From: an uncultured Collinsella sp.
GTDB taxonomy: Bacteria > Actinomycetota > Coriobacteriia > Coriobacteriales > Coriobacteriaceae
DNA: 64,000 nucleotides
Assembly: GCA_902466735.1 (NCBI GenBank)
Contig: CABQSB010000009.1
Location: forward strand, 21,352-85,351
Reading direction: 5' to 3'
Positions 5,388-21,699 of the stretch are shown here, piece by piece. The notes beneath the pieces were generated by a model that saw nothing but the letters and a program-made list of their open reading frames with translations, ran no database searches and had not been told where the DNA came from. Each line of letters starts with the position of its first letter. Position 1 is the stretch's first letter. The position numbers were made by a program, and so were the translations under genes.

Positions 5388-6602
5388 TTAGCAGGTCGGA
5401 TATTCGCCTTCCCAAACAATGCGGCGATACTGGTCGGGGTCCGTGTCGCCTTCCGTGGAGAAGCAGAGCACGGAGCTCGTCTTGTCCAGGCCGATGAGCT
5501 CCTTGAGCTCGGCGTACTCGGGATCGAGCATGAGGGTCTCGACCAGGCCGGTGGTCACCGCGCCGGACTCGCCGGAGATGACGCGCGGGTCGCCCTTCTC
5601 GGGAGCACCCAGGGTACGCATACCGCGAGCGGTGACCCAGTCGGGGCAGGACACGAACGCGGTGGTGTGGTTGCGCAGGATATCCCAGCCCAAGATGTTG
5701 GGCTCGCCGCAGCACAGGCCGGCCATGATGGAGGGCATGTCGCCGTCCACAATGCGCGGATCGCCGTCGCCGGCGGCAGCGCCCTTGTACAGGCAGGCGG
5801 CAGGCGCGCACTCGACCACGACGAAGGTGGGCGGGTTATCGGGATACAGGTTGGTGAAGTAGCCCACCACGGCGCCGGCGAGCGAGCCTACGCCAGCCTG
5901 GACAAAGACGTGCGTCGGGCGGTTGATGGCCATCTCGCGCAGCTGCTCGGCAGCCTCGGAAGCCATGGTGCCGTAGCCCTCCATGATCCAGGACGGGATC
6001 TTCTCGTAGCCCTCCCAAGCGGTGTCCTGAACGATAACGCCGCGCTCGCAAGCGTCGGCCTCGGCGGCGGCCATGCGCACGCACTCGTCGTAGTTGACCT
6101 CTTCGATGGTCACCGTGGCGCCCTCGGCGGCGATGTTATCAAAGCGGGGCTTGGTGGAACCCTTGGGCATGTGCACGACGGCCTTCTGGCCCAGCTTGTT
6201 GGCAGCCCATGCCACGCCGCGGCCATGGTTGCCGTCGGTGGCGGTAAAGAAGGTGGCCTGGCCAAAGTCCTTGGCCAGCTGATCGGAGGTCAGGTAATCG
6301 AAGGTGCAGTCGGCAACGTCCTTGCCGGTCTCGTCGGCAATGTAGTTGGCCATGGCAAACGAGCCGCCCAGAACCTTAAAGGCGTTGAGGCCAAAGCGAT
6401 AGCTCTCGTCCTTAACGCACAGGTTGGACAGGCCCAGGCGCGCAGCCTGACCGTCCAGGCGGGCAAGCGGAGTGACGGTATATTGAGGGAACGACTGGTG
6501 GAAGGCGCGGGCCTTCTTCACGTGGTCGAGGCTCATGATTCCCAAGTGCTTATCATCGCTCTTGGGCATCGTGTTGCCCGCCCACTGGATCTTATCGGCC
6601 AT
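5388..6602 (-). CDS. ygeX: diaminopropionate ammonia-lyase (PLP-dependent, fold type II), YgeX/DpaL-like
   Basis: 404 aa. Tryptophan-synthase-beta-like PLP enzyme with characteristic DAPAL N-terminus (LGIMSLDHVKKARAFH..., KDESYRFGLNAFK with the PLP lysine). Confidence 0.85.
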   Translation of the reverse strand: MADKIQWAGNTMPKSDDKHLGIMSLDHVKKARAFHQSFPQYTVTPLARLDGQAARLGLSNLCVKDESYRFGLNAFKVLGGSFAMANYIADETGKDVADCTFDYLTSDQLAKDFGQATFFTATDGNHGRGVAWAANKLGQKAVVHMPKGSTKPRFDNIAAEGATVTIEEVNYDECVRMAAAEADACERGVIVQDTAWEGYEKIPSWIMEGYGTMASEAAEQLREMAINRPTHVFVQAGVGSLAGAVVGYFTNLYPDNPPTFVVVECAPAACLYKGAAAGDGDPRIVDGDMPSIMAGLCCGEPNILGWDILRNHTTAFVSCPDWVTARGMRTLGAPEKGDPRVISGESGAVTTGLVETLMLDPEYAELKELIGLDKTSSVLCFSTEGDTDPDQYRRIVWEGEYPTC

Positions 6603-7656: not shown

Positions 7657-8643
7657 ATGGCGCTGAGCAAGGCATCATGCACCGGTCGCGGATTGATTCC
7701 AGCAATTGGTGGACATGTGCACCGCATGTTCGATGAGGGTGAAGACGACCTGTTTTCGCTGAGCCTTGACGACGTGATGGATGATCGCCCGTGGACCGCC
7801 GACGAACTCATGGGCGGTGGGGCTCGCCCGTCAAGCCCCAATCCCGCACTTGCGCCTAAGTCCGCATCTGCGCCGACTCCTGCGCAGCCGCCTGTTTCGA
7901 CGCCCGCGTCTGCGCCCGCACCCATTTCGGCGCCCACGCCCACTCCCCGCCCCGCAAGCGACCCGTCCGAGACGGCGGCATTTCTCGCTGCGGCGACGCA
8001 GGGCAAATCGGCCGACAGCACCGTTATGTACAGCGCCCAGCAGTTGCCTGTTCCTGCGGCACGCAAGCCTCCGGTCACAAGGCTCGATGAGCCCGTTGCC
8101 CATCAGGTTGCCTACGATTTCTGGGCTGCAGCCGATCTGGATGAGACCTCTACCGGCATGCCGGCGCTCGACGTTCCAGTTAACCCGCTTTTTGCCGCCA
8201 ACACGAGCGCCGCGGACTATGAGGGCGGTGCGGCATATTCCGATTATTCCGATGGCTATGCTGACGCCGGTCGCATCGAGACCGAGGATTATGGCACCGC
8301 ATCGAGCGATTATCTCAACGATCCGTACGCTGCCACGCCTGCACCGGAATATGACCCGGAGGCCGCGTCCGCACCGGCGTATACCAAAAGCACGGGCGAA
8401 GAGCGCTTCGCCGATTATTACGCCAAGGAAAAGGCGCTGCGTTTCTCGGAATTTCCGCAGGCAGTCAAGGCTGCCTTTATCGCCATTGTCATTGCCCTGC
8501 TCGGCGTCATTGCATTTGAGGGATTCCAGCTGTTCTCCGGCCCCACCCAAGCGGAGTCGGAGACCCAGCAAAAAGAGGACGATAACCAGTACCTGGACAT
8601 CAACACCCTCAAGGGCGACCCCAACGACGGGGACGATGAGTAG
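7657..8643 (+). CDS. hypothetical Pro/Ala/Ser-rich low-complexity protein with a single C-terminal transmembrane helix
   Basis: Start trimmed to MALSKAS (AAGGGTGG upstream). Long PAPTPA-type low-complexity region. Hydrophobic stretch AAFIAIVIALLGVIAF near the C-terminus. Confidence 0.4.
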   Translation: MALSKASCTGRGLIPAIGGHVHRMFDEGEDDLFSLSLDDVMDDRPWTADELMGGGARPSSPNPALAPKSASAPTPAQPPVSTPASAPAPISAPTPTPRPASDPSETAAFLAAATQGKSADSTVMYSAQQLPVPAARKPPVTRLDEPVAHQVAYDFWAAADLDETSTGMPALDVPVNPLFAANTSAADYEGGAAYSDYSDGYADAGRIETEDYGTASSDYLNDPYAATPAPEYDPEAASAPAYTKSTGEERFADYYAKEKALRFSEFPQAVKAAFIAIVIALLGVIAFEGFQLFSGPTQAESETQQKEDDNQYLDINTLKGDPNDGDDE

Positions 8644-9008
8644 CGAGAGCTGAAGGCGGCCGCAGGATCCCGCATCCAGCACCGGCTTCTAAGTGCTGTT
8701 TTGTCATCCAGCTACACTTTTCCGAAGTTTTAAGGTGCCTATTTCGACACTTTTCCGTACTTTTACACGGCTGATTTCGACACTTTTCCGGATGAAAGCC
8801 GAATAATCACTTGGGAAACCAACGCCGTTCACGCGTCATTTCGCAGGCGGCGCTTGATTTCTGTCCGTACACGTTGATAGACTTCCTCTTGCCCGCAAGG
8901 AGCGGGCGCATTTTATCCAGAGTCGGGGTAGAGAGTTGGCTCCACGATCCCGACGCCAACCGGCCAAGAGGCACGGTGGCCCTGCCAACATCGATGAAAG
9001 GAGTCCGT

Positions 9009-9374
9009 ATGGACAATTTCTCCGTGCGCAGCGAGCGTAACTTCCACAACCTGATCGTCAAACCGAATCACATGCATCTTCTGGATAAGCCAAATGGCTA
9101 CGCCTCGGCCATGATCAAGAGCAGCCTCTCCCACCAGATGCGCTTTACGGTGCAGGTGCTCTAGGAAGAACTCTGCGCCGCCGGCAGCCCGCACGTGCTG
9201 CAGATCAAGCTGCTTGGAGACGACTCTCGCGAGCCGTCTAGCTGGAAGCTCTTTGCTGACGGCATATGCGTTGCGGACGGATCCGGCGCCTTTGCCCGAG
9301 AGTGCTTCTGCGAGGGAGCCGAGGCATTCCTGGACCTGTGCCGCGACGCCGTACGCACGGCCGAGCTGTACTAG
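9009..9374 (+). pseudogene. small hypothetical ORF (ATG after AAAGGAG) interrupted by one in-frame TAG at 9162-9164, and open for 69 more codons
   Basis: Read directly: MDNFSVRSERNFHNLIV...RFTVQVL, then TAG, then EELCAAGSPHVLQIKLLGDD...AELY. Either a 51-aa peptide or a disrupted 121-aa gene. Confidence 0.25.
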
Positions 9375-9452
9375 TGGAGCCAGAGGGAGTATGAGCTGTT
9401 GAGTGCGGCCCGCGGGATTGCGGGGGCGTAGGCAGACAGGCCAGACAGCTCG

Positions 9453-10274
9453 TCATACTGGTTGACGCTTCGATTCAAACAGCAGGGCGGGCTCGCGCTT
9501 ACAGCCCCGCCATGCCAAACCGAATGGCGTTCTCAAAAGGCCTACCCCCTCCGCCTTCAGCTTTAGCAGCAGGTCGCCCAGCTCGGAGCACTTGCTGGAA
9601 AGGCGCGTCTGAGCTCGCTCGCCCATCCCCCACCGTTGACGGACCTCCTGGGCGCGCGGGCTCACGCGGTAGTCCCCGTCCATCATCTGCTTGAGCAGCT
9701 TGGCGGTTACGCGCGCATCGGCAAGGGCGCTGTGGGCGTGGCCCGTCGACTCGTCGAACTCGATGCCAAACCACGCTGCCGCGTCACTCAAAGAGACGCA
9801 CCCGTGGCTGCCCACGTCCATGATCGAGGTGTAAAACGCCTGCAGATCGGCCCAGTCCGTAGGAAATGCGGCAAGATCGATGTGCTTTGCCTGACACTCG
9901 GTCAAAAGCTGCCGACGATCCGTCCCGCTCCAGCAAACTATCTGGGCGGAGTAGCGACCGATCCAATCGTTGAGCCTTTTGATCACCACGTAGAGCGAAT
10001 CGGCCATCGCGGTGTCCACAGCCGATATCCCTGTGAGCTCGCGGACGGGAAACGCAACGCCTTCGGTAAATTCCGTCTGCACAAACTGCGAGAACTCGCC
10101 CATAACGTTGCCGTGGTAATCGAGCTTGACGGCGCCGACCTCGATAATCTCATTGCGCAGTCCACGGCGCTGGCGCTGCTTTGGCACCGGCGCAAACTCA
10201 AAGTCCAGCACAATCTGGCGCGCAAAGTTCGTCGTATCGATAGCCGAAATACCCGGCGTCTTTTCAGCTGACAC
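9453..10274 (-). CDS. DEDDh-family 3'-5' exonuclease (DnaQ-like) domain protein with C-terminal extension
   Basis: Exo I motif LDFEF. HSALADA motif (H-x4-D). GTG start chosen after a GGAGAAAGG-like RBS. The upstream 100 aa of the ORF are Ser-rich low complexity without an RBS. Confidence 0.6.
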   Translation of the reverse strand: MSAEKTPGISAIDTTNFARQIVLDFEFAPVPKQRQRRGLRNEIIEVGAVKLDYHGNVMGEFSQFVQTEFTEGVAFPVRELTGISAVDTAMADSLYVVIKRLNDWIGRYSAQIVCWSGTDRRQLLTECQAKHIDLAAFPTDWADLQAFYTSIMDVGSHGCVSLSDAAAWFGIEFDESTGHAHSALADARVTAKLLKQMMDGDYRVSPRAQEVRQRWGMGERAQTRLSSKCSELGDLLLKLKAEGVGLLRTPFGLAWRGCKREPALLFESKRQPV

Positions 10275-10738
10275 GGTTAGGGCCTTTCTCCGTTGCCTGC
10301 CGCCTGCTACATAGCTACATAGGCGGCTACATTGCCGTAAGGATAGGCGCCCGTGCGGACATGAAAGCGGGACGCAATGCCATGCGCCGGGCGCGCGTAT
10401 GCAGACGGCCCCAAGAGAGTCGCCCGCTCTATTCAAATGCATGAAAAAGATTGAGGCCCGGTGACTTGAATCAAAGGTCATCCCGGGCCCATCAGAGCTC
10501 GTAGAGCTCTTGGTTGCTTTGGTCTCGCTCTTCACGGCGCTTATCGAACTTTCCGAGGCACTCAAGCAGCATTCGAAGCATAACAAGTCGCTGCCATTAA
10601 GGCACTGACCTCTTGACCAAGCAACGGCGCTGCCCAGCTCTTCACCACTTGGGCCGCCGTCGACTTTATTCTATCCGCGAGCATCTGGTTTACCAAATGG
10701 ATTTTCGGTAAAGGAAGCACGGCACGCCCGCAAAACCA

Positions 10739-11392
10739 CTACGCCCCAAGTGCCGCCATGGGGATCACCGCCACGCCGTCGTCGCGTGTGTAGGCAATGC
10801 TCCCCTTTCCAACCACGACCGCCAAAAACGCCGGCGCGGCATTCTGGGCGGCAGGATTGGAGAGCACTTTCCTCTCCAGCGCCTTGAGATTTCTCGCTCC
10901 ATCGTCTGCTTTCGCATCACTCAGCTTGACCTCAATGGCTCCCCAGCGCCCGTCGTGCTCAACGATCAGATCGACCTCAAGGCCCTTCTCATCTCGGAAA
11001 TAATGGACACTGTTGTCGACACCGCCGTAGGTGGAAAGGAACACGCGCACATCGCGCAGAACGAGGTTCTCAAAGAGCATCCCCAACGTTTGCATATCGC
11101 CAAGCAGCCGCTCAGGGGTAGCCCCCAGCAACGCCGCCGCAAGTGACGGGTCGCAGAAGTAGCGCTTGGGGCGCACGCGAACGCGGGCCTTCGAGCGCAT
11201 GGGCGGCTCCCATCCGCACGGGTCCTCGGTCAGTTTGAGCCTGTTGAAGAGGTCCAAGTACGCAGCGATGGTCCTCTCGTCGGGACCCGCCTCACCGTAC
11301 GAGGCGTCCTTTATGAGCGTCTTGTACGTGACGGCCTGGCTCTCGTTCATGGCAAGAGCTCGCAAAAGGCCGTGTGCAAGCTCGGGCGACAT
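10739..11392 (-). pseudogene. N-terminally truncated AAA-family ATPase: only the DUF4143-type C-terminal domain remains
   Basis: 217 aa match the C-terminal (DUF4143) half of the common 400-aa ATP-binding protein family. No Walker A/B region upstream. Tandem repeats start 15 nt upstream of the ATG. Confidence 0.5.
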
Positions 11393-11410
11393 GCGATATA
11401 CGAAATTACG

Positions 11411-11502
11411 CCATTCTCAATGCTGTTTTTACGCTACTTTCAATGTAGTTTTTACGCCATGACAGATGCAGTTTTTACGCTATTTTCATTGAAGGTTTTA
11501 CG
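11411..11502. repeat. 4 x 23-bp tandem direct repeat (consensus YYAYTNTCAWTGNNGTTTTTACG)
   Basis: Units read directly: cattctcaatgctgtttttacg / ctactttcaatgtagtttttacg / ccatgacagatgcagtttttacg / ctattttcattgaaggttttacg. Confidence 0.8.
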
Positions 11503-11539
11503 CTTGGCATCCTTAGCGCAACGCTCGCTCAACCCCTGA

Positions 11540-11900
11540 CCACCGGATTGCCCGAATTCCGGGATGCTGCCTCCGCTCCAAACAAAAGGCCCAGCTCGCG
11601 ATGAGCTGCCTCCCATTTCTTGAACATTAGAAATGGGAGACTTTCCACCCCATGCCTCTATCGGAAACGGAATCCCGTCCTGAACATCGAATCCGGGACG
11701 TAGTTTCCGCATGCGGCCTCGTTAGGAAAGCATGTCCCACTCTGAGCGCTCATTCCGGGGTGCAATTTCCGCCAGAAACGCCGCCGGGAAAGCACATCCC
11801 GATTTGGAGCCGAAATCTGGGATGTAGTTTCCACTTGAAGGGCGATCCGGAAAGCACGTCCCATTCCGAGTGGCAATTCCGGGTCACAGTTTCCGCAGAT
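11540..11900. repeat. Array 1 of a roughly 62-bp repeat made of alternating inverted ~31-bp half-units (GGAAAGNRYRTCCC... / GGGNYGNANTTTCC...). About 4.5 units with a terminator-like module near the left end.
   Basis: Units read directly, e.g. ggaaagcatgtccc...ggggtgcaatttcc and ggaaagcacgtccc...gggtcacagtttcc. Same family and same orientation as array 2. Confidence 0.8.
11579..11610 (-). terminator. terminator-like module H1 (CTCCAAACAAAAGG + GC hairpin), paralogous to the xdhD terminator. A second perfect 10-bp hairpin (TCCCATTTCT/AGAAATGGGA) lies at about 11611-11638.
   Basis: On the minus strand it reads as a hairpin followed by UUUUGUUUGG. No minus-strand gene upstream, so it is an orphan copy. 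Confidence 0.4.
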
Positions 11901-12190
11901 ACAAGACGACGATCCGCAGCCCTTATCACATGCCTTCAAACATGCGATCCAGAAACGCAAAACAGCGGATAGAATGCTCTTTTTCAAAAAAGTACACGTC
12001 CCGAAACTTACCCAGTCTTCATAACTCGCTACCGTTCACGGTCGCCGATTACCGTCCACCGATTCGGATGTAAAAATGTCGCCGAAAACAGGCCATCTAC
12101 CTGCATGGTTAGATTTTGGTCAGCTTTTGGTCAGTTGAGCGGCAAGTTCCGGCTGATACGTTTTTGCTACCCAAAAGGAGGCGGTAGCTC

Positions 12191-13189
12191 ATGACCCATT
12201 GCAATGACCAACTCATCGACCAACTGCTCACTCAGGCCGAGCAGGAGGGACGATGCCTTATTCCCCCGAGCACGGCGGTCCGAAAAGCGCTCCTTCAGCG
12301 CATGGGCGTCACGGTCGCCTCGCCCATGCCGGGGTTGTTTGCGCGAAAAACGCGCTGGGACGAACTCAACCGAGCGCAACGCCATTGCGAGATTATCCGC
12401 GCCCTTGCAATCATCCACCCCGATTGGACGTTCTGCTCGTTTTCGGCAGCATGCCTCCTGGGACTCGAAGTCTCGTGGCGGCACCTGAACGTCGCACACG
12501 TCTGCAGCTCGACAAAACCATCGGCTCGCCCGGGCGCGCATATTCAGCGGCATCAGATCGAGCCGGCCGGAGCAATCCGTCTATCCAGCACATCGGTAAC
12601 GCCGCCCATCAAAACGGTAACGGATTGCCTGCTGCAGACCGGTTTTGCCGATGGCATGCCTATTGCCGATTCGGCGATCTCAAAGCTTGGCCTAACGCGA
12701 GAGCAGCTGATGGGAGCAGTCGAAAAACGAGCGGGCGCTCGCAACGGCCGCGCGGTGCGCACGGCCCTCACCACGCTCCAATATGCTGACGCGCGCGCCG
12801 AGAGCGGCGGGGAATCGGTCGCCCGCGCTGTCATGATCGAGACCGGCTTTGCACCCGACCAACTTCAATACGAGCTAACGGATCCCTTCGATTCGACCGA
12901 AAGCATGCGAACGGATTTTGCCTGGGAGCGTCAAGCCAGGGAGCTCACGCTGGGCGAACTCGACGGGCTCATCAAATATACCGACCAGACCATGCTGGCC
13001 GGACGCACCACCGCCGAGGCGCTCGTTGCCGAACGACAGCGCGAGGCGCATCTATCGCTCTACGGTCACCCTCTGCTGCGCTTTACCATGAACGAGGTCC
13101 GCTCGGCAGGAATGCTCGCCAAAAAGCTGCAGACGGCAGGCATCCGGCAGACCGCGCTGCCGACATGGCTCAACGACGTGGAGCTGTAG
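12191..13189 (+). CDS. DUF559 (Vsr/restriction-endonuclease-like) domain protein with N-terminal AbiEi-antitoxin-like domain
   Basis: 332 aa. AAAAGGAGG RBS. N-terminus GLFARKTRWDELNRAQRHCEIIRALAIIHPDWTFCSFSAACLLGL is the typical AbiEi_4-like block. C-terminus RTDFAWERQARELTLGELDGLIKYTD...GHPLLRFTMNEV matches the DUF559 pattern. Confidence 0.7.
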   Translation: MTHCNDQLIDQLLTQAEQEGRCLIPPSTAVRKALLQRMGVTVASPMPGLFARKTRWDELNRAQRHCEIIRALAIIHPDWTFCSFSAACLLGLEVSWRHLNVAHVCSSTKPSARPGAHIQRHQIEPAGAIRLSSTSVTPPIKTVTDCLLQTGFADGMPIADSAISKLGLTREQLMGAVEKRAGARNGRAVRTALTTLQYADARAESGGESVARAVMIETGFAPDQLQYELTDPFDSTESMRTDFAWERQARELTLGELDGLIKYTDQTMLAGRTTAEALVAERQREAHLSLYGHPLLRFTMNEVRSAGMLAKKLQTAGIRQTALPTWLNDVEL

Positions 13190-13264
13190 GAGCCGCTAGG
13201 CCGCGCATCGCCGAATCGCATCCCCCCCCTATCTGGGCCGCGTTTTCCCAACGGCCACGCCAAC

Positions 13265-13808
13265 GGAAAGCGCGTCCCAGTCTGGACGCTCAAAACGGGA
13301 TGTACATTCCGGATGGCGGGCCTAGCGGAAAACGTGTCCCGGAATAGACGCTCAAACTGGGATGCAGTTTCCAAGTGAATGACAACCGGAAAGTGCGTCC
13401 CGGAATAGGAGCTCGGAACGGGATGCGCTTTCCTGACGAAGCTCCTTGCGGAAAGCGTGTCCCAGAATGAAGACTCAGAATGGGATGCAATTTCCGCCTG
13501 AAGGCGATTCGGAAAGCATATCCCGTTCTGGCATCGAATTCCGGGTCGCAGTTTCCGGTTGAGGGCTGTTCCGGAAAGTGTGTCCCATTCCAGGCGCGGA
13601 TTCCGGGACGCACTTTCCGTTTGAAGCTCCAACCGGAAAGCGCGTCCCACTCTGGAGCCGAATTCCGGGACACGCTTTCCGCCAGAGGCTCTACCGGAAA
13701 GCGCATCCCATTCTGAGCATCGATTCCGGGTCGCAGTTTCCGCCTGAGAGCCGATCCAGAAACTGCATCCCATTCTGAGCGCCAATTCCGGGTCGCAGTT
13801 TCCGCTCC
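13265..13808. repeat. Array 2 of the same ~62-bp alternating inverted-unit repeat, about 9 units, ending in terminator module H2
   Basis: Nine consecutive units begin GGAAAG(C/T)G(C/T)(G/A)TCCC, each followed about 18 nt later by GGG(A/T)(T/C)GCANTTTCC, the reverse complement of the first half. The two minus-strand ORFs in the track are artefacts of the repeat. Confidence 0.85.
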
Positions 13809-13844
13809 AAACAAAAGGCTCCGGCTCGCGATGGAGCCGGAGCC
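13809..13844 (-). terminator. intrinsic terminator of the xdhD operon (GGCTCCGGCTC / GAGCCGGAGCC 11-bp stem followed by UUUUGUUUGG on the minus strand)
   Basis: Perfect stem plus U-rich tail read on the minus strand, 70 nt downstream of the xdhD stop. Confidence 0.75.
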
Positions 13845-13913
13845 AAAGGCACAGCTTATGCAGTTGATGTTGAGCGCGAACGGCCCGTCAGCAATGACCG
13901 TCCGCGCTCTACC

Positions 13914-16691
13914 CTACCCGCGGTGACGGGCGCGGCTGTACGGCGTATCCACCATGGGCAGATCGGGGCGTAGCTTGCCGTCAAACGCGCGGTAGGCGTT
14001 CTGCACGGCGGGCGCCGTGGGGATCGTTGCGATCTCGCCGATGCCCTTGCCGCCATATGCCACAGGCAGCAGCTCGTCCTTCTCCACGTAGATGGCGTGG
14101 ATATCCGGAATCTCGGGCGCACGGAACAGCCCGAGCGTGCCGTACCTTGCCTGGGGCACGCAGTCCTTGAGCGGCCAGTCCTCGGTAAGCGCATAGCCCA
14201 TACCCATGAGCACGCCGCCTTCAATCTGACCCTGGATGGAGATGGGGTTGACCACCTTGCCGGAATCGTGCGCAGCATAGATCTCGCTCACGTGACCGTC
14301 ATCGTCCAAAATGACCACATGCGTGGCAAAGCCGTAGCAGATGTGGCTCTTGGGGTTGGGGACGTCGGCGCCCAGCTTGTCGGTCGGCTCCAGGTACACG
14401 TAGCCAAACTCGCATCCCTCGAGCGCCTTGATGGCGGCCGCGGGATCCTGAGGATGCATGCCCTGGCCGGCGACGAGCTCCTGTGTGCGCAGCTGATAGG
14501 CGCGACCGTCGTCGTACTCGATCTTGACGCCGTCGCCATGCGCACTCACGGGAGCATCGGGTGCAGGCTTGCCGGCCTCGATGCCAACCATAGCATCGCG
14601 CAGCAGGAAGGCGGCGCCGCGCACGGCCTCGCCGGTCACGACCGTTTGACGCGAGCCAGACGTGGTGCCGGAGTCGGGAGCGTTCTCGGTAGAGCACTCG
14701 CCGTTGGCGATGCAGCTCAGCGGCAGACCGCAGGCCTCGGCAACGTCCTGCAAAAAGACCGTGTTGCAGCCCTGGCCGATGTCGGACGTGGCGGCGTAGA
14801 CCACGGCGCGGCCATCCTCGACGCGAATCTTGCAGCGACCGGCATCGGGCAGACCCACGCCCACGCCGGCGTTCTTCATGGCGCAGGCAATGCCGGCGTG
14901 GCCGGGATGCGCGTAGTAGGCATCCTTGACCTCGAGCAGCGTCTCCTTAAGCGCCGTGGAGCAGTCGGCAATCTGGCCGTTGGGCAAAACCTCACCCGGC
15001 TCGATGGCGTTGCGGTAGCGAATCTCCCACGGATCCAAACCGACCTTCTCGGCCAGCAGGTCGATCAGGCTCTCGAGCGCAAACTCGGATTGGCAAACGC
15101 CAAAGCCGCGGTACGCACCGGCGGGCGGGTTGTTGGTGTAGTAGCCAAAACCGCGAATGTCGGTGTTCTGGTACTTGTAGGGACCGACGGCATGCGTGCA
15201 GGCACGCTCGAGCACCGGGCCGCACAGCGAAGCGTAGGCGCCGGTATCAAAGTTGATCTCGCAATCCAGGCCGGTAAAGTTGCCTTCGGCATCGCAGCCC
15301 AGTGTAAAGGTGCCGTCCATGGCATGACGCTTGGGATGGAACGCGAGCGACTCAGCGCGCGTGAGCTTGCACTTCACAGGACGCTGGAGCTTATAGGCAG
15401 CAAGCGCGGCCAGGTGCTGGATGGATACGTCCTCCTTACCGCCAAAGCCGCCACCCACGAGCATGGTCTCGACGACCACACGCTCGGGTTCGTTATCCCA
15501 GCCAAACATGTGGGCGCACTCTTTGCGCGTGTCGTAGGCTCCCTGGTCGGTCGACTGCACCTTGACGCCGTTCTTGTACGGGAAGGCAACGGCGCACTCG
15601 GGCTCCAAGAAGGCATGCTCGGTAAAGGGCGTGGTAAAGCGCTGCGTCACGGTGAACGCGCTCTCTGCCAGCGCCTTGGCGGCGTCGCCGCGCGTCACAT
15701 GGCGGCTCTGGCACACGTTGTCCTTGAGCTCCACCGTGTTGCCAAAGGCAAAGAAGCTGTCATGCAGGCGTGGGGCGTCGGCGGCCTTGGCCTCGACAAT
15801 GTTGCGCACGGGCTCCAGCGGCTCGTAATCGATCTTTACGAGCTTCTTGGCCTTCTCGAGCGTCGCCTCGTCCTCGGCAACCACCAGCACGATGGCATCG
15901 CCCACGCAGCGGGTGATATCGCCCGCCGCGATCATGACGTCCCAGTCCTGGATAAGGTGGCCGACTTGGTTGACCGGCACGTCCTCGGCGCGCAGGATGC
16001 CCACCACGCCGGGCAGGGCCTCGGCCTTGGAAGTGTCGATGGAGAGCACGCGGGCGCGCGGATACTTGGAGCGCACGGCGCTGGCGTAGGTCAGACCTGG
16101 CTGATCGAGCTCGTCGATGTCGTCGGGATACTTGCCCTCGCCGAGCACCTTCTTGCGCACGTCGATACGGAAGGCGCGCTTGCCTACGCCGTAGTTGTCG
16201 CCGCGCTCCAGATCCTCGTCGATCTGCTTTTCGCCGCGGAGCACCGCAGCGGCCAGCGAAATGCCCTCGATAATCTTCTTGTAGCCGGTGCAGCGGCAGA
16301 CGTTGCCGCGGATGGCGTACTTGATCTGCTCCTCGGTGGGCTCGGGGTCCTCGGCGATGAGCGCTGCACCCGCCATGACCATGCCGGGGATGCAAAAACC
16401 GCACTGCACGGCGCCCACGGCGCCAAAGGCGTACACAAAGGCCTCGCGCACGTCCTCGGGCAGGCCCTCGACGGTCACGATGTTACGGCCGGCGGCAAGA
16501 GCGGTGGTCAGCACGCACGCCTTGACGGCCGCGCCGTCTACATGGATGGTGCAGGTACCGCAGGCGCCCTCGGAGCAGCCGTCCTTAGCGGAATGGATAT
16601 GCAGGTCGTCGCGCAAGTAGCGGAGCAGCGGCTTGTTCTGAGTCGTCGTGCGCTCGACGCCGTTAACGGTAAAAGTGAATTCCTGTGCCAT
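13914..16691 (-). CDS. xdhD: molybdenum hydroxylase, XdhD/aldehyde-oxidoreductase type (two N-terminal [2Fe-2S] domains fused to the molybdopterin-binding subunit)
   Basis: 925 aa. Ferredoxin-type and second 2Fe-2S cysteine motifs (CSEGACGTCTIHVDG ... QCGFCIPGMVMAG ... CRCTGY), then the MoCo-binding large-subunit fold. No FAD domain, as in E. coli XdhD. Confidence 0.85.
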   Translation of the reverse strand: MAQEFTFTVNGVERTTTQNKPLLRYLRDDLHIHSAKDGCSEGACGTCTIHVDGAAVKACVLTTALAAGRNIVTVEGLPEDVREAFVYAFGAVGAVQCGFCIPGMVMAGAALIAEDPEPTEEQIKYAIRGNVCRCTGYKKIIEGISLAAAVLRGEKQIDEDLERGDNYGVGKRAFRIDVRKKVLGEGKYPDDIDELDQPGLTYASAVRSKYPRARVLSIDTSKAEALPGVVGILRAEDVPVNQVGHLIQDWDVMIAAGDITRCVGDAIVLVVAEDEATLEKAKKLVKIDYEPLEPVRNIVEAKAADAPRLHDSFFAFGNTVELKDNVCQSRHVTRGDAAKALAESAFTVTQRFTTPFTEHAFLEPECAVAFPYKNGVKVQSTDQGAYDTRKECAHMFGWDNEPERVVVETMLVGGGFGGKEDVSIQHLAALAAYKLQRPVKCKLTRAESLAFHPKRHAMDGTFTLGCDAEGNFTGLDCEINFDTGAYASLCGPVLERACTHAVGPYKYQNTDIRGFGYYTNNPPAGAYRGFGVCQSEFALESLIDLLAEKVGLDPWEIRYRNAIEPGEVLPNGQIADCSTALKETLLEVKDAYYAHPGHAGIACAMKNAGVGVGLPDAGRCKIRVEDGRAVVYAATSDIGQGCNTVFLQDVAEACGLPLSCIANGECSTENAPDSGTTSGSRQTVVTGEAVRGAAFLLRDAMVGIEAGKPAPDAPVSAHGDGVKIEYDDGRAYQLRTQELVAGQGMHPQDPAAAIKALEGCEFGYVYLEPTDKLGADVPNPKSHICYGFATHVVILDDDGHVSEIYAAHDSGKVVNPISIQGQIEGGVLMGMGYALTEDWPLKDCVPQARYGTLGLFRAPEIPDIHAIYVEKDELLPVAYGGKGIGEIATIPTAPAVQNAYRAFDGKLRPDLPMVDTPYSRARHRG

Positions 16692-20343: not shown

Positions 20344-21699
20344 TTAGTAGGTGCGACCGTTGAGCGTGCTCCAGAGCTTCTTGGACTCAGCCATGGTCCA
20401 CGCGTTGATCTTGTCCTCATCGATGCCAACGAACTCGCGATCCTTGTACAGGACGCGGCCGTTGATGATGGTGGTGCGGCAGTTTTTGCCCATCATGCCA
20501 AAGAGCATGTGGCCGTCGATATTCTCCTCGCTCAGCGGCGTAAAGGGCTTGTAGTCCATGACGATGACGTCGGCGGCAGCGCCGGCCTCGAGCACACCGA
20601 GCTTGCGATCGAAGTACTTGCTCGCCATCTTGGCGTTGTTCTCGAACAGCATGGTCATGGCCTCGCACCAGCCCACGTTGGGCATGGCGGCGTTGTGGCG
20701 CTGAATGATCAGGAAGACCTTAAGGCTCTCGAGCATATCGTGGGTGTAGGCGTCGGTGCCCATGCACACGGGGATGCCGCGGCGGAAGAACTCGAGCACG
20801 GGGGCACAGCCCACGGCGTTGCCCATATTGGATTCGGGGTTGTTGACGAGCCAGGTACCGGACTCCTTGACGATATCCATCTCGGCAGGCGTCACGTGGA
20901 TGCAGTGGCCCAGCATGGTATCGGGACCCAGCAGGTTGTGCTGCAGCAGGCGCTCGACGGGGCTGATGCCGCCGCGGTTGAGACGGGAGTCCCACACGTC
21001 ATTCATGCCCTCGCACACATGGATGTGGAAGCCGGTCAGGCCGTTGTTGGCCTCGGCCATCTTGTCCATGGTCTCGTCCGAAAGCGTGAAGGTGGCATGC
21101 CCGCCAAACATGGCGGCGATCATGTGGTTGTCGTTATCGCGACGCTCCTTGGCGGCCCACTGGGCAAACTCGGCGTTCTCGGCAATGGCCTGGTCGCACT
21201 TTTCCTGGCCGCGGCGGTCGGAGACCTCGTAGCACAGGCACGAACGCATGCCCAACTCCTGAGCGGCGTCCTTAATGGTAAAGAGGCTCCCCGGAATCTC
21301 GCAGAAGCTCGCGTGGTGATCGAAGATCGTGGTGACGCCATCGCGGATGGAGTCAAGAATCGTGGCATAGGCGCTGGCCTTGGTGCCGTCGAGCGTCAGG
21401 TTGTCGTCGATCTTCCACCACTGCTGCTCAAGATTCTCCAGGAAGTTGGTGGGGTTGCAGCCCTTAATGGCAAGGCCGCGGGCCAGACCCGAGTAGATGT
21501 GGGTGTGGCAGTTAATGAGTCCGGGCATGATGAGGTTGCCCTGGGCGTCGACGTACTCGGCATCCGGGTACTTGACCTTGAGCTCGCACTCGGGGCCCAC
21601 TTCGACGATCGTATCTCCGTCAATGGCGACCGCACCGTTGGGGATGAACGGGGTCTGAGCGTTGCGAGTAAAGACGGAACCGTTAGCGACCAGAAGCAT
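20344..21699 (-). CDS. ssnA: SsnA-like amidohydrolase (chlorohydrolase / aminohydrolase family)
   Basis: Start trimmed to MLLVANGSV (AAGGGAG RBS). HxH metal motif (LINCHTHIY). About 451 aa. Lies next to ygfK as in E. coli. Confidence 0.8.
   Translation of the reverse strand: MLLVANGSVFTRNAQTPFIPNGAVAIDGDTIVEVGPECELKVKYPDAEYVDAQGNLIMPGLINCHTHIYSGLARGLAIKGCNPTNFLENLEQQWWKIDDNLTLDGTKASAYATILDSIRDGVTTIFDHHASFCEIPGSLFTIKDAAQELGMRSCLCYEVSDRRGQEKCDQAIAENAEFAQWAAKERRDNDNHMIAAMFGGHATFTLSDETMDKMAEANNGLTGFHIHVCEGMNDVWDSRLNRGGISPVERLLQHNLLGPDTMLGHCIHVTPAEMDIVKESGTWLVNNPESNMGNAVGCAPVLEFFRRGIPVCMGTDAYTHDMLESLKVFLIIQRHNAAMPNVGWCEAMTMLFENNAKMASKYFDRKLGVLEAGAAADVIVMDYKPFTPLSEENIDGHMLFGMMGKNCRTTIINGRVLYKDREFVGIDEDKINAWTMAESKKLWSTLNGRTY

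Follow-up and report, generated by a model that had tools for sequence, protein, structure and literature searches.

We analysed a 64,000-nucleotide stretch of DNA (the window; positions 21,352 to 85,351 of contig CABQSB010000009.1) from an uncultured Collinsella sp., in which orf332, a gene for a nuclease-like protein, lies between two arrays of a short repeat with inverted cores, downstream of the xanthine dehydrogenase gene xdh. Comparison with related sequences indicates that these arrays are quite probably copies of a non-coding tandem repeat that is interspersed throughout the genus Collinsella and does not depend on orf332, and that the window carries one cassette allele of a variable hotspot behind xdh. 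The initial annotation of the region had described much of this anatomy, which was borne out, and had suggested that the arrays could be a binding array or selfish-element scar around the nuclease-like gene, an interpretation that for the most part did not hold. The main value of the result is negative, in that the arrays appear to be no dedicated partner of orf332 and to be ordinary for the genus; their strictly spaced, non-covarying geometry is the sole part of the finding that we consider still worth pursuing.

The repeat and its distribution in Collinsella

The arrays, the gene between them and the neighbouring xdh gene are located in the window as follows.

11662-11897, plus strand: array 1, four units of the 62-bp Collinsella repeat, all of forward polarity
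12191-13189, plus strand: orf332, with a predicted AbiEi-like N-terminal region and C-terminal Vsr/DUF559-like PD-(D/E)XK nuclease fold; an accessory cassette gene
13264-13810, strand not assigned: array 2, nine units in two opposed polarity blocks
13914-16691, minus strand: xdh, encoding a 925-aa molybdopterin xanthine dehydrogenase (Pfam; RefSeq annotation of a 95%-identical orthologue)

The core GGAAA-N5-TCCC occurs 19 times in the window against 0.35 expected, always inside 11663-13709, and the full palindrome GGAAA-N5-TCCC-N18-GGG-N6-TTTCC gives 18 strand matches where none is expected. Each 62-bp unit consists of two inverted cores, CGGAAA-N5-TCCC and GGGA-N5-TTTCCG, with gaps of 18 bp on one side and 16 bp on the other, and the cores alternate in strand at steps of 32 and 30 bp. 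There are 13 in-register units of about 62 bp (4 + 9), all 13 with an 18-nt gap between the inverted 14-bp cores; the units are 60-73% identical to one another, and Tandem Repeats Finder (TRF) reported periods of 62 and 123 for the arrays. These counts agree with the alternating inverted cores in 31-bp phasing, and with the nine units of array 2, that were described initially. Array 1, put at about 4.5 units, is present with four, the 'half unit' at 11556-11577 being part of a duplicated junction (see below). The two arrays had also been given the same orientation; array 1 is indeed all forward, but array 2 is mixed, with the units at 13327, 13388 and 13450 inverted and the remaining ones forward, so that its two blocks compare as 13327-13500 and 13511-13810. 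Polarity was assigned by a position weight matrix, as the orientation calls of nhmmer were noisy owing to the quasi-symmetry of the unit. A 'palindromic loop' seen in the consensus was dismissed as an artefact of mixed orientations, since oriented units show polarity. Long open reading frames (ORFs; 239 and 174 aa) cross array 2 (13066-13814, minus strand), likewise in the related stretch L121 (10876-11583, minus strand), and public gene calls give a 235-aa product there; these ORFs are almost certainly artefacts of the repeat.

A pattern scan for the 46-bp palindrome, run on one genome per prokaryotic species, matched at least 120 stretches, almost all labelled Collinsella or Coriobacteriaceae; the counts that follow refer to the matches listed. 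Acidobacteriota contributed a lone match, and one bin labelled 'Ruminococcus' carried a typical Collinsella locus. Almost every stretch held a tandem array of 1-9 units. About 110 of the 120 arrays were intergenic, the contexts being convergent in 48 cases, tandem in 24 and divergent in 7. The proteins flanking the arrays formed 66 clusters, or about 30 or more distinct contexts, and included patatin, ArsC-like, ThiE, SDR, AspRS, an RsmI-type methylase, DnaK, acetate kinase, Cas1 and a large surface protein. A single 900-kb C. aerofaciens replicon matched the repeat in at least 10 places.

The geometry of the unit is kept at these loci. The gap between cores was 18 bp in 290 of 293 cases, the other gap was 16 or 15 bp in 227 of 230, and no internal insertion was found among 289 units defined by nhmmer, although sequence identity is down to about 53% in the loops and to 36-41% in the spacers. 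Conservation focuses on CGGAAA, TCCC, GGG and TTTCCG, together with a few loop positions that confer the polarity of the unit, and the conserved positions form two short blocks about one helical turn apart. The unit spacing, judged from these alignments, seems to be under selection. The five central core positions showed no covariation across either gap (z = 0.7 in both) and G-U pairs showed no strand asymmetry (195 vs 179), which argues that pairing of the arm centres is not under selection.

An orf332 homologue within about 8 kb was absent from 118 of the 120 listed stretches; the two that had one (L087 and L117) are both orthologous xdh loci. No arrays were found beside three distant orf332 homologues (38-45% identity), nor beside a 37%-identical paralogue in the isolate C. 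aerofaciens TSDC17.2-1.1. In this isolate, too, xdh is followed by 2.5 units, IS3, IS21 and an AbiEi/AbiEii pair, with no orf332 there. At the xdh locus itself, every strain with the gene has arrays on both sides of it. We regard the repeat, on these comparisons, as independent of orf332. The initial annotation had named arrays at many loci with neither a DUF559 neighbour nor phasing as an outcome that would speak against its proposal; loci lacking an orf332 homologue are indeed many, while phasing is kept at all of them.

The orf332 product (332 aa) had no match in Pfam, NCBIfam, PADLOC or PDB sequences, and its C-terminus gave no significant match to the Pfam DUF559 model. An AbiEi_4 match was obtained for only 1 of 70 aligned family sequences and was weak (E = 0.008), and orf332 lacks the combination of an AbiEi_4 HMM match and a partner AbiEii toxin gene by which AbiEi members are recognised. 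The family is large (3,666 representative clusters), and 69 aligned relatives share invariant D160, E208, S209, R212, Q226, D242, E256, G259, K262, R284 and R297. The protein has a Lys at the position occupied by His in Vsr-type enzymes. A confident structure model matches Vsr/DUF559-type nucleases and AbiEi, so that the predicted fold, an AbiEi-like N-terminus with a DUF559-type C-terminus, stands as first called. The closest known proteins are AbiEi_4 and DUF559/Vsr-like PD-(D/E)XK proteins, among them the catalytic domain of the homing endonuclease I-Bth0305I (PDB 3r3p), Vsr (1cw0) and NGO0050 (3hrl).

A phage or plasmid origin of the repeat was considered and rejected: of 10 viral contigs that hold the pattern, 7 have it as a single one-strand match and only 2 have more than one unit, and the sole PLSDB match, a Collinsella replicon of 900 kb, has housekeeping genes on it. 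Two further contexts were seen among the stretches. Other Collinsella genomes encode a 943-aa paralogue of the xdh protein (29% identity) with a repeat array behind its gene (L045 5300-5407, L057 5547-5654). In L112 (369-1590) a cas1-cas2 pair lies directly upstream of the 3'-end remnant of a chloride-channel gene and its repeat array; no CRISPR array is present on this 2.7-kb contig, and the proximity of Cas1 to the repeat looks coincidental.

The cassette hotspot downstream of xdh

The 95%-identical orthologue of xdh is annotated as a selenium-dependent xanthine dehydrogenase and shares its operon with ygfK, ssnA and a permease gene. We compared alleles among 80 metagenomic relatives of the xdh 3' end and found the interval downstream of xdh to be polymorphic even among strains whose xdh genes are at least 97% identical. 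The following layouts were observed.

xdh, terminator, no unit or one unit, DUF4143 gene: L124, L125, L159
xdh, one unit, RNase_T: L133, L136
xdh, array, orf332, array: the window
the window type plus a cassette for a 463-aa ATPase_2+DUF234 protein, with or without a third array: L132, L138, L144, L148

The number of units at the position of array 2 ranges from 0 to 9 across strains, and arrays are absent at more distant xdh loci (identity up to 82%). Three cassettes were seen between xdh and RNase_T, namely orf332, the 463-aa ATPase_2+DUF234 gene and a 431-aa AAA_14+DUF4143 gene, and in one isolate (C. aerofaciens TSDC17.2-1.1) IS3, IS21 and AbiE occupy the hotspot. The repeat arrays lie at cassette junctions, and cassettes encoding unrelated proteins are flanked by arrays too. 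Genes of the island have a G+C content at third codon positions (GC3) of 0.71-0.75, compared with 0.83-0.86 in xdh and other flanking operons. From the allele comparison, the interval between xdh and RNase_T is a hypervariable hotspot of accessory genes of the defence type, in which orf332 is one swappable cassette.

The left end of the window's insert had been noted initially as an orphan copy of a terminator module. The duplication is real: the H module (TTTCCGCTCCAAACAAAAGG) occurs exactly at 13799 and with two mismatches at 11570, where none is expected. The intrinsic terminator that had been assigned to the xdh operon at 13809-13844 also proved sound, as no other site in the region resembles a terminator as strongly as the hairpin 13844-13817 (minus strand) with the tract that follows it, which lies 3' of the gene for the 925-aa xdh protein. 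The junction comprises these elements.

11553-11606: left copy of the 54-bp junction duplication (the 'orphan' module; repeat families D5 and D6), in which a half unit is joined to the H module and to the 5' half of the hairpin of the xdh terminator
11610-11639: hp2, an 11-bp inverted repeat at the insert's left edge (CTCCCATTTCT/AGAAATGGGAG), read from the sequence
13784-13837: right copy of the 54-bp junction duplication, overlapping the last half unit and the functional terminator
13807-13844, minus strand: intrinsic terminator of the xdh operon, with an 11-bp GC stem and then TTTTGTTTGG; its hairpin is seen when the minus-strand RNA is folded and is kept in all alleles, including empty ones

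Empty alleles are colinear with the window over 10516-11606 and 13784-15000, and 54 bp of the empty site match both ends; in L125, positions 5513-5566 align to both 11553-11606 and 13784-13837. The window allele thus amounts to an empty allele with 2,231 bp added (hp2, array 1, orf332 and array 2), bounded by a 54-bp direct duplication, and the left breakpoint of this indel falls in the hairpin loop. The direct duplication accounts for the 'orphan terminator', which on this alignment is the junction of the 2,231-bp indel. The 63 bp around hp2 recur in L138 and L132 beside the third array, and part of them 3' of the 463-aa gene in L144. The idea that the H module is a general end-piece of the repeat was dropped, as 12 non-xdh loci (up to 2 mismatches) have it far from, and unrelated to, arrays.

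On the other side of the insert lies what remains of a further cassette gene.

10739-11392, minus strand: remnant of a 431-aa AAA_14+DUF4143 ATPase, namely its C-terminal half (217 aa); the ATPase is a defence candidate of the PADLOC PDC-S01 type
11406-11504: 4.3 copies of a 23-bp AT-rich tandem repeat (36% GC; TRF), TTACGC-N6-CAATG-N2-GTTT

The 217-aa ORF matches Pfam DUF4143 (E 1.9e-29) over profile positions 15-160 of 160, and PADLOC PDC-S01 over profile positions 225-417 of 422; a full-length PDC-S01/AAA_14+DUF4143 match with the N-terminal AAA domain was not obtained for it. Full-length 431-aa versions are found in L144, L148 and L160. The gene, reported from the outset as truncated, has indeed lost about 680 bp in the window, and L124 has about 660 extra bp at window position ~11392. 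The four 23-bp tandem repeats beside it were likewise recovered. They had been taken to replace the 5' end of the ATPase gene, which the alleles contradict: in L124, L144 and L148 these repeats precede the full-length gene, and every allele retains them in front of the 431-aa AAA_14+DUF4143 gene. Judged by this comparison, they are the native upstream region of the ATPase gene, kept after the deletion, and possibly an operator or promoter array for this defence-candidate gene.

Several other observations concern the island. The low-GC3 stretch runs from a PAS_6/HTH_22 regulator gene to xdh (window ~8600-13200; 5467-10999 in L121). Clusters of homology breakpoints at 9540-9547, 10303-10369, 10516 and 11199 show that the mosaic structure of the island extends far outside the arrays. 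Next to the island, the gene for the RNase_T (DEDDh) exonuclease (window 9453-10586, minus strand) matches the cas-associated DEDDh model of PADLOC and PDC-S48, which fits the setting of a defence island. In L087, the 463-aa ATPase_2+DUF234 gene is immediately preceded by a 57-bp AT-rich near-perfect palindrome (1509-1565; TTACGTTATAGCTAGCTATATTATA...TATAATATAGCTAGCTATAACGTAA). The isolate TSDC17.2-1.1 has IS3, IS21 (istAB) and the AbiEi/AbiEii pair in the hotspot on L221 (NZ_OY725717.1 487497-506480), its 900-kb 'plasmid 6'; as this replicon also carries smpB, gltB and the xdh operon, it looks like a part of the chromosome filed as a plasmid.

Possible origin and role of the arrays

As a genus-wide repeat independent of orf332, the arrays would grow and shrink via slippage or unequal recombination, their inverted cores would permit block inversions, and they could act as patches of homology that favour the gain and loss of cassettes. 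They may persist at the 3' ends of genes because insertions are harmless there, or they may be mildly useful, as hairpins in read-through RNA, as insulators or as a phased platform for protein binding. Several points weigh against this reading. Although 41% of the homology breakpoints at the xdh locus fall inside arrays, which make up 9% of the compared length, variation in copy number contributes to this excess through the alignment, and the island has many breakpoints outside arrays. The 2,231-bp insert encodes no recombinase that would account for the 54-bp duplication, and the indel is compatible with both an insertion and a deletion. Finally, orthologous loci from many species are not independent of one another, so the statistics on context and geometry are inflated.

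As to function, we tentatively consider that the arrays may be phased double-stranded DNA platforms for a host protein (nucleoid-associated, insulator or topology-related) with one site per 14-bp core, a proposal that is compatible with a genus-wide repeat and would supply its functional half. Cores 32 and 30 bp apart, about three helical turns, would place all sites on the same face of the helix. The near-invariant spacing despite diverged loops and spacers, the two conserved blocks about one turn apart and the lack of covariation between variable core positions of partner arms are consistent with such a platform, whereas copy number is unconstrained (1 to 9 units) and the rarity of indels may come in part from the shared descent of orthologous loci. 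With about the same reserve, the arrays may act in RNA, as terminators without a U-tract, as insulators or as hairpins protecting the 3' ends of convergent genes. Their location fits this role: 48 of the 79 listed contexts are convergent, the shorter distance from array to stop codon has a median of 45 nt, arrays often fill the entire intergenic gap, and 75% of the gene 3' ends that face an array have no canonical terminator of their own. Each unit is moreover able to form a hairpin in the strand read through from xdh (z = -6.9), and the unit closest to a gene is 'opposite' to the gene direction by about 2:1 (89:45 at 3' ends; 28:14 once orthologous loci are collapsed). Arrays of mixed polarity usually consist of two opposed blocks, which suggests either inversions between inverted cores or an orientation directed by the genes. 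Against a role in RNA, the stems show neither compensatory changes nor the strand asymmetry of G-U pairs, there is no Rfam family match, a canonical terminator of their own is present in 25% of array-facing genes, xdh included, and in 16% of the background, and a neutral tolerance of insertions would equally give enrichment at 3' ends. The near-absence of indels together with arms that do not covary favours spacing-dependent protein binding over a pure RNA hairpin, and hints at such a role for the repeat.

Explanations that tie the arrays to a dedicated mobility system or to orf332 are less probable. Spread as elements of the repetitive extragenic palindromic (REP) or REPIN type, by a REP-associated tyrosine transposase (RAYT; an IS200/IS605-like Y1 transposase) acting on single-stranded hairpins, is unlikely. 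The units are interspersed, extragenic and palindromic, their alternating orientation resembles that of bacterial interspersed mosaic elements (BIMEs) as described in PMC2817692, and GTAG occurs inside some arms, e.g. GGGACGTAGTTTCC. However, the conserved ends are CGGAAA and TTTCCG rather than a terminal GTAG or CGTC tag, and the 46-bp palindrome with its 18-nt loop is longer than typical REPs. An IS200 tnpA lies 3.5 kb from an array but has no repeat cores in the 5.5 kb around it, and the 66 listed flank clusters, read by eye and in 10 cases by Pfam, contained no Y1 transposase, although they included one IS30-like and one IS110-like protein. We hold it very unlikely that the arrays are attC-like sites of an integron-like cassette system. 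Arrays of imperfect palindromes do stand between single-gene cassettes, a direct duplication borders the indel, and within each palindrome an outer box (CGGAAA/TTTCCG) and an inner box (TCCC/GGGA) enclose 5 nt that are mostly unpaired, a layout that resembles the R and L boxes of attC. Yet neither the window nor any allele examined encodes an integrase beside the locus, the tandem units have no ORF between them and stand several to a junction, and most listed arrays lie between housekeeping genes. There is equally little to recommend the view that the arrays serve the AbiEi-like/DUF559-like protein as binding sites in cis or as an operator array, or are the scar of its selfish element. The AbiEi-like region is presumably DNA-binding and the gene is array-flanked wherever it occurs at the xdh locus, but nearly all listed repeat loci lack a homologue, the same-species paralogue and the three distant homologues are array-free, arrays stay behind xdh where the gene is absent, and neighbouring cassettes with unrelated proteins are array-flanked as well. 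Binding of the repeat by the orf332 protein in trans is possible. A further reading also seems improbable, in which the arrays would be a new kind of phased recognition or recombination platform. Their strictly spaced cores would be read by a host or cassette factor, and the arrays would set the exchange points of single-gene defence or nuclease cassettes in an integron-like but integrase-free hotspot; orf332 could then be a free-standing homing nuclease targeting the xdh terminator, where the 54-bp junction duplication sits.

Significance and comparison with known repeats

Collinsella is an abundant genus of the human gut with hundreds of species-level clusters. In its genomes the repeat is likely a frequent cause of contig breaks; it also gives rise to spurious ORF calls, and strains could be typed by its arrays as ready variable number tandem repeat (VNTR) markers. 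The repeat marks junctions in a hotspot of defence genes, and its spacing, which is strict although pairing is not conserved, offers a clue to a DNA-binding factor in a phylum that has been little studied.

Two classes of arrays were rejected in the course of the analysis. The units are degenerate, the cores alternate, the gaps are only 16-18 bp and the repeat lies at about 30 or more loci by housekeeping genes, all unlike a CRISPR array, whose direct repeats are nearly identical, alternate with unique spacers of similar length and usually go with cas genes; this agrees with the initial annotation. An integron attC array, which would have one attC per promoterless cassette beside intI and attI, was set aside in view of the lack of an integrase in the alleles examined, the multiple tandem units per junction and the arrays at non-cassette loci. 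In Rfam the only match was to mir-515, at chance level (24.7 bits vs a gathering threshold of 68, E = 0.11), and a limited literature search yielded no description of this repeat in Collinsella or Coriobacteriia.

Minisatellites of the mycobacterial interspersed repetitive unit (MIRU) type are VNTRs with tandem units of 40-100 bp at dozens of intergenic loci and with copy-number polymorphism among strains; MIRUs are direct repeats within operons and may carry short ORFs overlapping neighbouring genes. Both they and the Collinsella repeat are actinobacterial tandem units, but those of Collinsella are palindromic, and gaps between convergent genes are their main setting. The STAR elements found in staphylococci are genus-restricted, intergenic direct repeats of variable number and location (PMC3532100). 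The Collinsella repeat is likewise genus-restricted, intergenic, variable and associated with no known transposase, and differs in its cores, which alternate in inverted orientation with fixed phasing.

BIMEs are described in PMC2817692 as regularly spaced palindromic units of alternating orientation that are clustered and extragenic, and the Collinsella repeat shows this architecture in its strand alternation and intergenic arrays. Both BIMEs, which are built of REPs and occur in Enterobacteria and Pseudomonas, and the Collinsella repeat are extragenic, are found at many loci in alternating tandem clusters, prefer gene 3' ends and vary in copy number. The Collinsella host, in contrast, belongs to another phylum (Actinomycetota, Coriobacteriia); the element is a 14-bp core, whereas a REP is a self-palindrome of 20-40 bp; and gap lengths are strict (18 and 16 bp) while gap sequences have diverged. 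A hallmark of REPs is a conserved GTAG (or CGTC) tetranucleotide at the end of the palindrome (PMC3733652). The Collinsella repeat has no such tag, GTAG being only a variant in the variable arm centre, and no link to a RAYT was found around the IS200 tnpA or among the listed flank clusters. The likeness to BIMEs is thus one of architecture and not of shared ancestry, and the units are not strict REPs. By analogy of this kind, BIME/REP and MIRU-type repeats appear to be the closest known counterparts of the Collinsella repeat.

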